Positions 21,087-29,392 of a DNA stretch of 32,000 nucleotides are shown here, piece after piece. The stretch spans positions 83,438-115,437 of the forward strand of contig JAUWKS010000004.1 of the NCBI GenBank assembly GCA_030614005.1. Direction: 5' to 3'. The notes under the pieces are model-generated. The model saw nothing but the letters and a program-made list of their open reading frames with translations, was not told the origin of the DNA and did not search any database. This stretch comes from Candidatus Heimdallarchaeota archaeon (GTDB lineage: Archaea; Asgardarchaeota; Heimdallarchaeia; JABLTI01). The position numbers and the translations under genes are program-made. Numbering within the stretch: the stretch's first letter is position 1; each line of letters starts with the position of its first letter.

Positions 21087-24000
21087 TTGACTTCAGAGGA
21101 GATTCGAGAACATATAATAATCAAAGGCGCCAAACAACATAATCTCAAAAATATTGATATAGAAATTCCAAGAGATAAATTTGTTGTACTTACAGGGGTT
21201 TCCGGATCAGGAAAATCATCTTTAGCTTTTGATACAATTTTTGCAGAGGGGCAAAGAAGGTATATTGAGTCCCTTTCAGCTTATGCAAGGCAATTTATGT
21301 CACAGATGACAAAACCGGATGTTGAATCTATAGAAGGCCTTTCTCCTACAGTATCAATTAGCCAAAAAACAACCAGCTATAATCCAAGGAGTACGGTGGG
21401 TACTGTAACAGAGATTTATGATTTCCTCAGAGTATTATATGCCCGAGTTGGTATTCCGCATTGTCCTAATTGTGAAATTGAAATTAAAGCTCAAACAATA
21501 ACAAATATTGTAGATCAAATACTAGTTACTTATGCTGATAAAGAAATAATGATTCTTGCACCTATTATTCGGGATCGAAAAGGAGAATATCGTAAAGAAC
21601 TAAAGGGGTTATTAGAAGCAGGTTACTCTCGAGCACGAATCGATTACGAAATTAAGAGGCTAGATGAGTTAACTTCTGAAGAAATGACCCTCTCGAGATA
21701 TTATAGACACACAATAGAAGCAGTCATTGATAGATTTACTGTCAGTAAAGAGGAAGAAGATCGATTAGCAGAATCTATAGAACATGCAACAAATATGGCT
21801 GATGGATTAGTTACCATAACAACTTCTGATGCAACAAATGCTATGAGAAAAATGTCTCAAACAAAAAAGAAGGAACAGAAAATAGAATTGGAAAAAGAAA
21901 CAAAATATGAGAAACTATTTTCAGTGCACCTTGCATGCCCAAAATGTAACCTAAGTTTTCCGAAACTAGAACCCAGGAATTTTTCGTTCAACACAATTCA
22001 TGGAGCTTGTTCGACTTGCAAAGGACTTGGAACAACTATTGAATACGATCCTAAATTGTTAATTGTAGATAGCAATTTATCATTAATTGAAGGAGCATTA
22101 GCTGATTATAATCAAGATACACAACGATTTAGAGTGTCAAATTTAAGTATCAATAGAATCAAAGCTGTTGTAGAGAAACTAGGTTTTACAATTAATACAC
22201 CATTGAAAGATTTAACAGAACAGCAATGGAATGATTTCTTCTACGGCCCCAAGAAGCCGATTCTTGTAGAATATGATTTCCACTGGGGAAATGAAACTAA
22301 GGGAATGGGTAGAGGAACTGCAAAAATTAAATATCAGGGGTTGCTCTCCCAGATGAAAAAGCGTTTTGAGAAAACTTCATCGCAATACATTCGTGATATG
22401 ATCCAAGAATTTACTCGACCAACAAATTGCCCTGATTGCGAAGGTTCGGGACTTCGAAAAGAAAGCAGATCAGTCATATTTAAAGGAAAAAGTATAAACG
22501 AACTCTCGAGTATGGCGATTTCACAATGTATCGAATTTTTTAATTCGATTAAGTTATTTGAAGTTGAAAAACAGATTGCTGAAGGATTATTAAAAGAAAT
22601 TAGAATGCGGTTAACATTTCTAGATAATGTTGGATTACCTTACCTAACACTCAGCCGAAGAGCAAATTCTTTGTCAGGGGGAGAAAGTCAAAGAATTAGG
22701 CTTGGAACACAGATTGGTTCAGGTTTGGAGGATGTTATATATATTCTAGATGAGCCGAGTATCGGATTACATAATAGAGATAATTTGAAACTCATTAATA
22801 CATTGCAAACATTGCGTGATAAAGGTAATACTGTCTTAGTATCAGAACATGACATTGATACAATGCTTGCAGCAGATTGGTTAATTGACATTGGTCCAAA
22901 AGCTGGGGAGTTTGGAGGAGAAGTCATTGCTGAAGGGCCTGCTGAGATAGTTGGTAAAGTGGATAAATCAATAACAGGTCAATATTTGATTGGAGAACAA
23001 AAAATTAAGGTTCCGAAGAAAAGACGAAAAGGAAACGGTGCAGTCCTCAAAGTGGTTGGAGCTGCAGAAAATAACCTCAAAGACATTGATGTTGAATTCC
23101 CATTAGGGATCTTTATTTGCGTCACGGGAGTGAGTGGTTCTGGAAAGAGTTCTTTAGTTTCCAATGTACTTTGGACAACATTAGCTCGTGAATTGAATAG
23201 AGCAAAAACTAAACCGGGAAAACATAAGACAATAACGGGATTTGAACATCTAGACAAAGTTATTTCTATTACACAAAAACCTATAGGGTACACTCCTCGC
23301 TCAGTTCCGGCAACATATACAAAACTTCTTGATCATATCAGAGATTTCTTTGCATCTTTGCCAATGGCTAAAGCGCGTGGATTCAAAAAAGGGCGGTTTT
23401 CCTTTAATACAAAACAGGGAAGATGTGAAGCTTGCAGAGGACTAGGTTATAATAGAGTAGAAATGCAATTCTTACCTAATGTTGAAGTTGAATGTGAAGT
23501 TTGTCGAGGCAAAAGATTTAGTGGAGAAACATTAGAAATAAAATATAGAGAGAAGAATATCTTCGAAATACTTGATATGACTGTTAATCAAGCACTTCTC
23601 TTTTTCAAAAATCATCCAAAGGTTGTTGTCATTCTTCAAACACTTCAAGATGTAGGATTAGGGTATATTAAACTTGGACAATCTTCAACTACTTTAAGTG
23701 GAGGAGAAGCTCAAAGAATCAAGATTTCAAAAGAATTAAGTAAAAAAGCAACAGGAAGAACGTTGTATCTATTAGAAGAACCTACTGTTGGGTTACATTC
23801 CTTTGATATTAACAATTTACTAATTGTATTAAATCGATTAGTCGATGCAGGAAATACAATAGTGGTAGTGGAACATAATCTTGATATGATCAAAAGTTCG
23901 GATTGGGTAATAGATTTAGGACCAGAAGGAGGAGAATTTGGTGGAGAAATAGTTGCTCAGGGAACACCTGAGAGTATAGCTAAGAATAAGGAATCGTATA

Positions 24001-26972
24001 CTGGTCAAGCTCTTAAGAAAGCATTAGATACTAGCTTATTAGTAAAACCGTCTTCTAAAGAAGGCAACTTAGTAGAAAGTACAAAAGCTAGAAGGAGCAG
24101 CAAACCTAAACAAAAAACCCATCTGTCAGTTTTCGGAGCAACAAAGAACAATCTGAAAAACATTGATGTCCACATACCAAAAAACGCTCTAACAGTAATA
24201 ACAGGAGTGAGTGGCTCAGGGAAATCTTCACTAGCACTTGATACAATATTCGCAGAAGGTCAAAGAAGGTTTGTCGAGTCGTTATCCACATATGCAAGAC
24301 AATTCTTAGGAAGAATGGATAGTGCAGATGTAGGAAAAATAACGGGATTATCACCAGCGATATCTATTGATCAGAAATCTGCAGGAAGAAACCCTCGTTC
24401 TACTGTGGGAACGATGACTGAAATTAACGACTATCTTCGTATACTTTTTGCTACCGTTGGTATAACATATTGTCCTCAATGTGGGAAAGATATTTCTCCA
24501 ACTCCTTTACAAGAAATGGTTCACAAAACCCTTGAATTAGGAGAAGGAGCAAAAATCAAAATCATCACTCCACTAGTTAAGAACTCAAAAGGAAACTACA
24601 AACCATTAATCAAAGAACTTATTCGAGAAGGCTTTACAAGGGTAATGATTAATGGAGAAGAAACGTTACTTGAAGATGTGAAATTTACTAATAAGAATAA
24701 AGAAAGCAAACATATTGTTATCGATAAAAACATCGCATATACCATTGATCTTATCGTTGATAGATTAAATGTGAGTACCGAGGATAAAGGACAATTATTT
24801 GATTCAATTGAAACTGCTCTAATTAAAAGTGATGGAGTAGTCAAAATAGCAGTTAATGGAACTGTATTAACATTCAGTACAAAAAGAGAATGTTTTGATT
24901 GTGAGGTAAAATTGCCAACAAAACTTTCACCGAAGATTTTCTCATTTAATTCTCACGTAGGAGCTTGTGAAAAATGTGCAGGATTGGGATCAATCAAGTC
25001 CATAGATCCGAAATTATTTGTCAAGGACTCGAATAAATCAGTAAGAGGAGGCGCGTTCGGTCCAATAACAGAGAATAAAGACGAAAATAGTTGGATATTA
25101 TCACTCATTACAAGTGTAGGAAAAGAATATGGTTTTACCATTGATACTCCCGTAAAAGACCTTACAAAAGAACAATATAATGTTTTACTCTATGGTGCTG
25201 ATCGAAAAATCAAACTTGTTAGAGATGTTAGTAGAAGGAGTTATTCCTATACATTTGAACGTGAAAGTGAATATAGTGGTTTGATACCAATTTATGAACG
25301 GTGGTTATCTAATACAACTTCTATGTGGTGGATAAATTGGATGGACAGATTTGCCAATATCCAAGTTTGTTCGGAATGCAACGGAGCAAGGTTAAAACCA
25401 ACTACTCTAGCTGTAAGAATAGCTGGTATAAATATTAAACAAATATCAGAATTGTCTCTGGGTGAAACTTATACATTCTTTGAAAATCTATCTTTTGGCG
25501 GAGCAGATCAAATAATAGCTCAAGGCTTAATAGAAGAAATACTAAATCGACTAAAGTTTTTGCAAGATGTTGGGTTAGAGTATCTAACCCTAAATAGAGA
25601 ATCACGAACACTCTCTGGAGGGGAAGCTCAAAGAATTCGCTTGGCAACTCAGATTGGAAACAAATTAGTGGGAGTATTATATGTTTTAGATGAACCAAGT
25701 ATAGGTTTGCATCCTCGAGACAATGAACGATTAATTAACACTTTGAGAGAACTGAAAGAACTTGGTAACACTGTAGTTGTAATAGAACATGATGAAGACA
25801 CAATAAGAAGTGCAGACCATATCATTGATTTAGGACCTGGTGCAGGTCAATTGGGAGGAGAAATAGTTGCAGAAGGTACACTTGACCAAATTATTGCAAA
25901 TAAAAAATCTCTAACAGGAAAGTACATTAGTGGAAAAAATTGCATACCTATCCCAGAAAAAAGAAGAAAAGGTAAAAAATACTTAACGCTTACCGGAGCA
26001 AAACAAAATAATCTGAAAGACATCACTGTTAAATTTCCTTTAGGAGTTTTTACAGGAATAACAGGAGTGAGCGGTTCTGGTAAAAGCTCCTTAGTAATAG
26101 AAACACTTCATAAAATCCTAAGTAGGGCTTATCACAGATCAAAGCAAATAGCAAACAATTACACTTCTTTTGATGGCTTAGAGCATCTTGACAAAGTAGT
26201 TCTTATCAATCAAGATGCAATAGGACGAACTCCAAGATCAAATCCAGCAACATATACCGGAGTATTTGAACCCATTAGGCAACTCTTTGCACGAATGCCC
26301 GAAGCAAAAATGAGAGGATATACCCTTTCCAGGTTTTCATATAATAGTTCAAAAGGGCGGTGTTCAGTTTGTAGAGGAAGAGGTGTTAAACGTGTCGAGA
26401 TGTTGTTTCTAAGTGATGTTGAGATAATTTGTGAAGAGTGTAAAGGTAAAAGGTTTAACAGGGAAACACTAAAAGTAAAATTCAAAGATAAAACAATTGC
26501 AGATGTTTTGCATATGACTATAGATGAAGCACTGGTATTTTTTGTTAATCAACCTAAGATAGCTAGAATTCTCCGAGTGATGCAAGACGTAGGGATGGGA
26601 TATATACAATTAGGACAATCTGCTACAACCTTATCAGGTGGTGAAGCTCAAAGAGTAAAACTAGCAGCTGAATTATGTAAACCTCAGACAGGGAAAACAC
26701 TTTACTTACTAGATGAGCCCACAGTTGGTTTAGCTGCATATGATGTTCATAAGCTTCTTAATATTTTGAACAAATTAGTAGACACAGGAAATTCAGTTAT
26801 TGTTATTGAGCATAATCTTGAAGTGATAAAATGTGCAGATTGGATTATTGATCTTGGACCTGAAGGAGGAGATAAGGGAGGAATGGTTGTTGCACAAGGT
26901 ACTCCTGAATCAATAGTGAAGAATGCAGATTCGCTTACAGGACAATTTCTAAATAAAATACTAACAAAATAA
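21087..26972 (+). CDS. uvrA: Double-length excinuclease ABC subunit A (two complete UvrA copies in one ORF)
   Basis: Four GVSGSGKSS Walker A motifs, four LSGGE signatures, and two FAEGQRR...SLS.YARQF segments. Copy 1 is ~21087-24030, a Ser/Lys-rich linker follows, and copy 2 starts at ~24118. Full Zn-finger sets in both copies. Confidence 0.95.
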
Positions 26973-27059
26973 GAATCAATTTGATAACTATACTAGCTAG
27001 TTTTAGCTAATATTACAAATCTTTTAAAAGAATTAATGTTTGAATATAATTGAGCGCAT

Positions 27060-27371
27060 TTGATTATGGCTAATTTAGATACTTCAATAAGACGATATGC
27101 TAACTCTCAAGAGTCTAATTACATCGAAGTTTGCAGCTGTATAGACCCTGAAAGGTGCCTAAGATTAGATATTGCTACAAAAACATATTATGGTGCCATT
27201 GGATGCAATGAAAAAAATGCTTGCGCAATTTTACAAATAAACAAACATAAAATCACCATTTCAAATAAAAGAAGAAGACTACTTGACCCATCTTTTTCTC
27301 AGAAAAAGAAAAATTTCAAGATAATGAAAGGTCCCAATGATCAAACTCTAGATCAATTCTTTGGAAAATAG
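27060..27371 (+). CDS. Small Cys-containing basic protein with a C-terminal PIP-box-like motif
   Basis: 103-aa ORF filling the gap after uvrA; five Cys; ends DQTLDQFFGK; start at TTG 27060 or ATG 27066. Confidence 0.55.
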   Translation: MIMANLDTSIRRYANSQESNYIEVCSCIDPERCLRLDIATKTYYGAIGCNEKNACAILQINKHKITISNKRRRLLDPSFSQKKKNFKIMKGPNDQTLDQFFGK

Positions 27372-27394: not shown

Positions 27395-29392
27395 TCAATT
27401 TATTATTGGTAAACAAAACGATATATCATATTGTTCTTCGCACCTATTACATGAGAAATGAGCAGTAAGTTTCTCACATTTAATGCCTTTTTCTGTAGTG
27501 ATAGTAATCTGATATTCACCTTTGCATTGTGAGCAATTCTCAGGAACAACTAAGATAATCTCTTCACCTGTATCAAGCAATGTTTTCTTCGAATGAAATT
27601 TCCCAAGACCAAATAGCTCTAACTCTTCAAGCAAACCATCAAAATAAAGAATGGTTTTTTTACTTTTTTCTATAGCAAATAAACGACCGGATTTTGTTAG
27701 CATCGTTTTTGGAGATGCATTTGCATAAGTCAATTCCCTACTTAAACTACTGCTGAGAGTATCTGAAAGATTTTTACCTCGCAGAGTAGCTTTACTGAAA
27801 AAATTTGCTATTCCTAATAGACCTAATTTTTCCAAACGATCAGCATCATGTACAATTTGACAATGAATATTACAATCCATTTGATCATTATAAAGTGCAG
27901 AAATAGCAGAGAGGATCAGTTGTATCTCCTTAGTAGAGAAACTTTCCTCTTTCAAAATACGCTCAGCAATATTTGCCGAATGAGTCTCTTCAGGGATATT
28001 ATCAATATGATACTGTCCTAAAACAAATTTTCCTGCATCGTGGAATAAAGCAGCAATTGTAGGAATGAGAGGATTTACTCCCTCTCTAAGTGCAAGAGTA
28101 TAAGCAATTTTTCCGACACGATATGAATGATCCCATAAGAAATTAGTTTCATAAGAAGAAGAATTTTCTTTGTTAAAATCACTTTCCGATTTTTGGATAA
28201 TTCGTTTTATTTTTACAAGTAATTTCGATGAGCGATTGCTGATTAACTCATCCATATCGTATTTCTTATGGTTTTTCTTCTTCAAATGCATCTTTCCCTT
28301 TAGTGATGAAATTTTGGATTTCAATGCTTGATTAGTTTGCTGTTTAGATGATGAATTTTGAACATCTAAAGCATCAGTATAAGAGTGCAATTCGAGGAAT
28401 CCTACTTTATTTCTATTCCACTTCTCAGCTTCCATGGTAAATGCTTGAAAACAGAGAGATTGAATATCTGTTTTGTTCTTATCATCCTTAGATGTTAGAT
28501 CATTTAAATTGTATAGAACTAAACCTACAATGAAATAATTCTCTTTCTTAAATAGGTTAGTTGCTAAATCAAATATTTTTTCCAAATCTTTTTGGGATAA
28601 CTGCATAAACAATTTTTCTTGTAGAAATACAAACAATTCGTTTAATTCTTTTCTTTGAAATTTATTCTCTACAGAAAATGATTGATTTGGAATAAAGAAG
28701 TCAAGATCTATTGCATTAAGATTAGGTAATAACTCTGGCTCATTCAGATTTGTAAATATTTCTTCTGCTATTTTTTTATACTTGGAGGCTATTGGTAGAA
28801 AGGTTATTTTTGGAACTAGACGATGAATATCATCTGCTCTACTTCGCTTTATTAGTGAAAGTAAAAGTCCACTTTCCAAAAGACTCCGTACATTAATTGC
28901 AGCGGTTAATGGTTCAATTTTACCAGTTGAAGGCCAATAGGGTACTATCATTGAAGAATCCATTAAATTACTAATTAGCTCTTGAAGAATATTTGATGAT
29001 AACAAAGGCATATCAACAGGAGTCAACAACACAAAATTATTCTTTACTGCTTGAATGCCAGTCAATATACCTAAAGTAGGACCTGAACATAAATAGGATG
29101 GATTATCTTTTAAGATTTTCACTTTTGATTTTACTGCACCATCCATCTTAGATATTGTAGATGAATAAAGCAAAACTTGAATTGAATTATTAACAACAAC
29201 GATAATTTCATCACAAATTTCAGAGAGAACTGTAACAGTTCTTTGTAAAAGATTCATATTTTCAGATATTGTAAGGAGAGCCTTATCTTGCCAAGGTTCA
29301 TTTTCTTTCTGAAACCGAGTACTTGTACCGCCTGCAATAATTATCCCACTGATATTGTGTGGAAAAGAAAATTTTAATGGCATAGTATTCAT
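27395..29392 (-). CDS. MobA-like NTP transferase fused to an HD domain and a C-terminal Cys (Zn-ribbon-like) segment
   Basis: IIAGGTSTRF...DKALL...GPTLGI...PVDMP...EPL (MobA family); WDHSYRV...ALFHDAGK...DADRLEKLG (HD); CSQC...CNRC. Confidence 0.85.
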   Translation of the reverse strand: MNTMPLKFSFPHNISGIIIAGGTSTRFQKENEPWQDKALLTISENMNLLQRTVTVLSEICDEIIVVVNNSIQVLLYSSTISKMDGAVKSKVKILKDNPSYLCSGPTLGILTGIQAVKNNFVLLTPVDMPLLSSNILQELISNLMDSSMIVPYWPSTGKIEPLTAAINVRSLLESGLLLSLIKRSRADDIHRLVPKITFLPIASKYKKIAEEIFTNLNEPELLPNLNAIDLDFFIPNQSFSVENKFQRKELNELFVFLQEKLFMQLSQKDLEKIFDLATNLFKKENYFIVGLVLYNLNDLTSKDDKNKTDIQSLCFQAFTMEAEKWNRNKVGFLELHSYTDALDVQNSSSKQQTNQALKSKISSLKGKMHLKKKNHKKYDMDELISNRSSKLLVKIKRIIQKSESDFNKENSSSYETNFLWDHSYRVGKIAYTLALREGVNPLIPTIAALFHDAGKFVLGQYHIDNIPEETHSANIAERILKEESFSTKEIQLILSAISALYNDQMDCNIHCQIVHDADRLEKLGLLGIANFFSKATLRGKNLSDTLSSSLSRELTYANASPKTMLTKSGRLFAIEKSKKTILYFDGLLEELELFGLGKFHSKKTLLDTGEEIILVVPENCSQCKGEYQITITTEKGIKCEKLTAHFSCNRCEEQYDISFCLPIIN

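Follow-up and report, generated by a model that had tools for sequence, protein, structure and literature searches.

A conserved small Asgard archaeal protein with a predicted zinc domain and a putative PCNA-binding tail of the Pol eta type

Analysis of a 32,000-nucleotide stretch of DNA from a Candidatus Heimdallarchaeota archaeon (hereafter the window, which is ~33% G+C; the host genome is 3.6 Mb and 90% complete) has established that a small open reading frame located downstream of uvrA is a genuine conserved gene, well beyond what chance would produce. Judged from sequence searches, the family to which its product belongs is restricted to the Asgard archaea and was previously undescribed. 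The reading that we favor, and to which we give a somewhat better than even chance, is that of an Asgard-restricted zinc-domain protein that would be tethered to PCNA through a C-terminal PCNA-interacting (PIP) box resembling that of DNA polymerase eta (Pol eta), an arrangement that would be shared by many lineages including the host.

The small gene and its promoter

The frame is open on the same strand as uvrA and begins at a TTG located 87 nt past the end of the uvrA ORF (Table 1), a position that agrees with the preliminary description of this locus. The in-frame TTG is probably not the start of the gene, however, because every homologue begins M-[AS]-N, which argues for the ATG located two codons further on and thus for a protein of 101 aa.

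Table 1. Features of the window, with positions counted from its first nucleotide
Feature	Position	Strand	Remarks
uvrA ORF	21087..26972	+	1961 aa
BRE/TATA-like element TTACAAA TC TTTTAAAA	27013..27029	+	37-53 nt before ATG; predicted promoter, 9 loci
GAGYGCRT box	27052..27059	+	7-14 nt before ATG; conserved in 9 loci
Open frame from TTG 27060	27060..27371	+	
CDS of the 101-aa protein	27066..27371	+	Probable start ATG 27066; stop codon included; homologues 52-95% identity
Zinc-domain core, residues 19-62	27120..27251	+	Three beta strands then long helix; predicted zinc binding
Basic stretch, residues 63-91	27252..27338	+	KRRR, family-specific RLLDP, KKK; from alignment and AlphaFold
PIP-like box DQTLDQFF, residues 92-99	27339..27362	+	Followed by G-K and stop; from alignment, resident clients and AlphaFold
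MobA-like nucleotidyltransferase-HD fusion	27395..29392	-	665 aa; convergent neighbor

A word-indexed search of 5.8 billion proteins returned 11 clusters of homologues at 55-93% identity, all of them 100-103 aa long, and a six-frame search located stop-free homologues in every one of the 11 other genomes of the host family at 52-95% identity. Translation gives a product with a CSC and three more Cys, the basic stretches KRRR and KKK and the C-terminus DQTLDQFFGK, all of which had been noted earlier and are present as described. The emphasis placed on the cysteines needs one correction in that C31 is not conserved; the other four are, and together with H61 they are invariant throughout the host family. 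Close homologues invariably keep C23, C25, C47, C53, H61, the segments LQINKHK and LLDP and the tail D92-Q93-T94-[LI]-D96-x-F98-F99, which is followed by 0-2 residues. Across an alignment of 42 family sequences that extends down to about 20% identity, C23, C47 and C53 remain invariant and C25, K60 and H61 are each kept in at least 90% of the sequences.

Conservation extends upstream of the gene. In nine loci (the window and eight relatives) the 70 nt before the ATG keep TTACAAAT-TTTTAAAA and GAGYGCRT, with G57, A58, G59, G61, C62 and T64 of the GAGYGCRT region invariant in the alignment. The first of these elements is a putative BRE/TATA promoter of the small gene and the second probably represents a transcription start region or a short leader. 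The promoter element is retained where the upstream gene codes for an amidohydrolase, is DinB/MST-like or is yet another gene. Since the upstream elements are kept whatever gene lies upstream, the small gene appears to constitute its own transcription unit.

Predicted zinc domain and C-terminal tail

AlphaFold modeling with the 42-row alignment gave a mean pLDDT of 80, with values of 90-96 over residues 21-70. The model comprises an N-terminal helix, strands at residues 19-25, 30-35 and 40-44 and a long helix at residues 52-73, with the CxC situated at the end of strand 1 and the Cx5C running into the start of the helix. From this arrangement we infer that C23, C25, C47 and C53 are the ligands of a single zinc; H61 is also conserved. 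The first third of the basic stretch forms the end of the long helix (to residue 73) and the rest is a low-confidence linker, pLDDT of the stretch being 53-78 beyond residue 73, as compared to 49-71 over tail residues 81-101, where a short helix is modeled at residues 95-98.

Fold matches of the small protein are at noise level and provide no functional clue. For two models, the best E-value obtained with Foldseek against the PDB was ~1 and the best Z values in a wide VIA-align search were 3.6 and 3.9; against a viral library the best E-value was 0.05, and the TM-score was poor. Neither the small protein nor any of 42 family members had a consistent Pfam match with the threshold set at E 1, nor did these sequences match Nre_N (PF04894) or Nre_C (PF04895) at the same threshold. 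When PDB sequences were searched with a profile (E up to 10), nothing came back but picornavirus capsid chains at E ~0.8, which are chance matches. A protein atlas pointed to RecQ_Zn_bind (PF16124) with a score of 0.87-0.88, and to nothing above 0.81 when residues 1-76 were submitted. We discarded this lead because a six-frame search of the host genome with PF16124 (E up to 0.01) gave no match; in addition, the listed fold matches include no RecQ chain, and there is no Pfam match.

The nature of the tail was assessed in the host itself, the ORFs of which were scanned for the pattern [ST][LI][DETS]x[FY]F within their last 12 residues. The pattern occurs in 12 of 6791 ORFs of at least 60 aa and in 9 of 2587 ORFs of at least 150 aa, as compared to 0.027% of internal 12-residue windows. 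All nine large ORFs are classical PCNA clients by Pfam, namely the RFC large subunit, Fen1, PolB, NucS, NreA, PolD DP2, a Y-family polymerase and two MBL/RMMBL nucleases; the other three are the small protein and two short ORFs that are probably spurious. The pattern is consequently close to specific as a label of PCNA partners in this genome. For example, Fen1 ends in QPTLDAFFGGQK and the tails of PolB, NucS and NreA read IRSLDDFF, SITIDAFF and QKTLEDFF, respectively, with RNase HII providing the canonical form, QTNLDEFF. Two of the clients merit description in their own right. The MBL/RMMBL nucleases, of 384 and 344 aa (G000:C35:31579-32733, L032, and G000:C72:2970-4004, L035), end in EITLDDFF and QSTLESFF and are candidate clamp-bound nucleases. 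Additionally, PolD DP2 (G000:C87:5027-9940, L036) contains an intein with a LAGLIDADG domain and has the PIP end QRSLTEFFGQP.

The preliminary description had compared the tail with a PIP box in which positions 4, 7 and 8 match and the Gln is shifted by one, a comparison that survives well given that the tail is conserved and matches those of resident PCNA clients. Position 1 is occupied by D92 with the Gln at position 2, so the tail falls outside the canonical PIP definition; its sequence is compatible with the non-canonical class. The aliphatic position 4 (L95, L or I) and the aromatic positions 7 and 8 (F98 and F99) are invariant in close homologues, and the motif lies in a flexible terminal tail, two residues from the C-terminus. 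A Gln at position 1 is not required in the host because PolB, NucS and one MBL nuclease, three of the nine clients, lack it. There is one PCNA gene in the host genome (G000:C7:15163, L091), and binding of PCNA by the tail is plausible because the tail is real, conserved, like those of the resident clients and recurring in distant members of the family. Two other short-motif assignments were tried and rejected: HbYX proteasome docking, as the penultimate residue is G or A and not Y, and a PIP-degron, as there is no T-D at positions 5-6 of the motif.

Structures on PCNA have been solved for the non-canonical PIP boxes of human Pol eta (GMQTLESFFKP, 2ZVK) and Pol kappa (KHTLDIFFK, 2ZVL) (PMC7225939). 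Both have the register seen in the small protein: position 1 is not Gln, positions 3-4 are T-L, position 5 is acidic and positions 7-8 are F-F, with the motif near the C-terminus. The Pol eta box, MQTLESFF, further resembles that of the small protein in having Gln at position 2. A basic stretch also precedes the Pol eta PIP box. A zinc finger lies ahead of the box as well (PMC8784325), so that the order of zinc module (predicted in the small protein), basic stretch and PIP-type box is common to the two proteins. The short helix modeled on L95-F98 may likewise correspond to the helix of bound PIP boxes. There is, however, no sequence or fold relationship to Pol eta or Pol kappa: the small protein lacks a polymerase, and its 60-residue beta-beta-beta-helix domain with CxC...Cx5C differs from the C2H2 UBZ finger of Pol eta. 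A similar situation applies to NreA (Nre_N and Nre_C), which has a C-terminal PIP box that in the host is close to DQTLDQFF but which is an unrelated 425-aa protein carrying both Nre domains and encoded on another contig; the small protein matches neither domain.

Family range and genomic neighborhoods

A full HMMER profile search of 1.84 billion representatives retrieved 34 proteins of 61-160 aa, none of them fused to other domains, with source names, where given, of Hodarchaeales, Kariarchaeaceae, Heimdallarchaeaceae and Promethearchaeota. No account of such a small zinc-protein family emerged from the literature searches, and with neither a Pfam family nor a fold match the earlier characterization of the protein as undescribed stands. 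The family has a match in 80 of 300 genomes of the phylum, covering nearly every family of the host class and five small-genome families in other classes, and has none in the phylum's two largest families (0 of 76 and 0 of 68 genomes).

The 34 representatives share less than 50% identity and their tails cannot be aligned; 15 of them nevertheless end in [LI]xx[FY][FLIM], as compared to a background of 2.2% (binomial p ~1e-16, a value that is overstated since relatives are not independent). Examples of these PIP-like tails are KATLDEFF, VTLDHFL, KLDKFF, GPLDKFF, QSRLNRFM and QCRIDDFI, of which the TLDEFF, TLDHFL, LDKFF and QSRLNRFM forms derive from Hodarchaeales, Kariarchaeaceae and other Asgard lineages. 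No PIP-like tail is found in genus g7 of the sister family f2 or in families f21 and f24. Conservation of TLDxFF, which the preliminary description had named as a check, therefore holds as an invariant D-Q-T-[LI]-D-x-F-F among close homologues and lapses in these lineages. Because such lineages exist, the function of the zinc-domain core cannot depend on PCNA, and this domain must have a role that is independent of the tail.

Two groups depart from the usual form. Family f3 has a second divergent copy of 120 aa (L046, L047, L078, L079), located between methyltransferase and thiolase genes, in which RPTLDKFF is internal and is followed by a ~30-residue tail rich in Ser, Pro and acidic residues. 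The tail-less members of f21 (L057-L059, L071, L072) are short, 74-85 aa in most loci; their genes closely follow that of ribosomal protein L21e and converge with that of RNase HII.

Gene order outside of the host family is quite different from that in the window. In families f2, f22, f4 and f9 the next gene downstream of the small gene codes for a class I Glu/Gln-tRNA synthetase (GlxRS), with a gene for a membrane-anchored RING-finger protein following the synthetase in several cases. In f3 and f7 it is divergent from the RING gene, beside NAT10/TmcA, PAC2 and Cdc48. The host carries the synthetase-RING pair on contig C9 (G000:C9:93522-96752) without the small gene, which therefore moved to its present site in the host family. 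This neighborhood suggests an alternative in which the tail binds something other than PCNA and the family functions together with its ancestral neighbors, GlxRS and the RING protein, in a setting that also includes Cdc48, PAC2 and HSP20; its role would then lie in protein quality control or translation and not on DNA. Since the tandem and the divergent arrangements are each found across families, the RING/GlxRS association survives rearrangement across classes; members that lack a PIP-like tail keep the GlxRS-RING context, and the persistence of the pair in the host can be counted in the same direction. On the other hand, the strict tail pattern of the host occurs on PCNA clients only (barring the two short, probably spurious ORFs), an f22 member that resides within the GlxRS-RING context still ends in TTLDEFFF, and related genomes can simply inherit a shared gene order, with no functional link behind it. 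We also know of no LDxFF docking site on tRNA synthetases or RING proteins. On balance we regard a non-PCNA partner for the tail as unlikely.

Several additional features of this neighborhood were observed. The zinc gene, GlxRS and the RING gene stay together through rearrangements (L017-L027, L041-L045, L060), and are often near genes for Cdc48, PAC2, HSP20 and a Ras-family GTPase. The RING protein (G000:C9:93522-94745 in the host) has its membrane helix at the N-terminus and its RING-like finger at the C-terminus, with a long helical region between them.

The proposal contained in the preliminary description was that the small protein is an adaptor coupling UvrA(BC) to PCNA, with the zinc domain binding UvrA and the tail binding the clamp. 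The order of genes in the host family is methylase, uvrA, small gene, a convergent MobA-HD fusion, membrane protein and kinase-like gene, and the small gene follows uvrA by 87-93 nt on the same strand in the window and in three of the eight loci fetched from host-family relatives. Additional points in favor are that UvrA itself has no PIP-like end and that PIP-bearing NreA has been linked genetically to UvrA in Haloferax (PMC7776575). However, in three of the remaining loci uvrA is separated from the small gene by one, two and three inserted genes, those scanned being an amidohydrolase and a DinB/MST-like gene; the same pair runs up to the contig end in a fourth locus, and in the last locus (G004, of the host genus) other genes lie upstream with uvrA on a different contig. 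Among the lineages fetched, adjacency is confined to the host family, and the two genes are megabases apart in three complete genomes (small gene and uvrA at 0.42 and 2.79 Mb in G016, 0.49 and 3.03 Mb in G026, and 3.73 and 1.30 Mb in G047). Adjacency or co-transcription conserved across lineages, as would mark an operon partner of uvrA, is thus not observed, and the synteny on which the proposal relied breaks down. Phyletic co-occurrence is uninformative, since 57 of 60 relatives have UvrA, which is near-universal in the class. Furthermore, the small gene has its own conserved promoter, a PIP-bearing NreA is already encoded on contig C59 and uvrB is located elsewhere in the genome. The adaptor idea has lost its only support, adjacency, and we now consider it very unlikely. 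Finally, the notion that the ORF is a non-gene and its motif a chance match in AT-rich intergenic DNA could appeal to the shortness of the ORF, the lack of a Pfam match and its being unannotated in most sources, but is already refuted, with negligible probability left to it, by stop-free protein conservation of 52-95% in 12 genomes, by a profile that retrieves relatives across Asgard lineages, by the confident AlphaFold core and by the conserved upstream promoter element.

The uvrA locus has features of its own. UvrA of the window joins two complete but diverged copies of UvrA in tandem within one chain, with UvrA frames being ~1920-1980 aa in the host family (f1) and its sister (f2) and ~970 aa in f3 and f4; further UvrA-like paralogues are ~1630 and ~840 aa. 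The uvrB gene is on contig C9, but a search with PF08459 for the UvrC RNase H domain gave no match in the 90%-complete host assembly; therefore the UvrABC set of the host may be incomplete, or its UvrC may be divergent. The convergent MobA-HD fusion gene, a neighbor of the small gene at every locus of the host family, codes for CxxC pairs at the end of the protein.

Proposed role and implications

Our preferred reading is that of a small accessory protein, produced from its own promoter, with an N-terminal domain of ~60 residues that probably holds one zinc via C23, C25, C47 and C53. Past the basic stretch, the very end of the protein, DQTLDQFF-GK, would occupy the PIP-binding pocket of the host's single PCNA, as do the tails of Fen1, RNase HII, PolB, NucS, NreA and others, and thereby bring the zinc domain to the sliding clamp where replication or repair takes place. 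Once there, the protein might be a small factor that regulates clamp traffic or competes in it or, alternatively, an adaptor whose zinc domain binds a partner or a nucleic acid. For this protein we infer zinc binding, PCNA binding and the clamp role; the gene neighbors, which are mostly not replication or repair genes, count against the clamp reading, as do the Gln at position 2 of the motif and the lineages in which the family has no PIP-like tail.

There are precedents for such a protein. TIP of Thermococcus kodakarensis is a small stand-alone PCNA-binding regulator (PMC6204406), as are p15PAF and p21 in eukaryotes (PMC7225939). Like the small protein, these are small and non-enzymatic with a PIP-type peptide as their main recognizable feature, and they act by occupying or remodeling PCNA. 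Profile and Pfam searches detected no homology of the small protein to any of them. To our knowledge, TIP, p15PAF and p21 also have no zinc domain. By analogy, the small protein could conceivably act as a regulator or adaptor in a similar manner. A more specific possibility, which we judge to be quite unlikely, is that the family represents a clamp accessory factor peculiar to Asgard archaea and most frequent in the Heimdall group, in which a zinc module on a Pol eta-like PIP tail regulates clamp traffic or links PCNA to the neighboring RING-finger/Cdc48 machinery. If this were true, the family would be an archaeal counterpart of the zinc-finger-plus-PIP modules that function in eukaryotic damage tolerance, such as those of Pol eta and Spartan.

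The small protein matters less for nucleotide excision repair than the adaptor reading had hoped. It does provide a compact and easily tested case, consisting of 101 residues, one peptide and one clamp, for a protein with no described family or fold, and scanning the ORF tails of a genome, as done here for the host, is a simple way of listing the PCNA clients of archaea that are uncultured. The small protein, as a zinc domain standing alone with a Pol eta-type PIP tail, would add a non-enzymatic member to the set of PCNA partners. Among the archaea, the Heimdall group is commonly considered to be most closely related to eukaryotes. The set of PCNA partners in Heimdall archaea shows which clamp-centered regulation predates eukaryotes.
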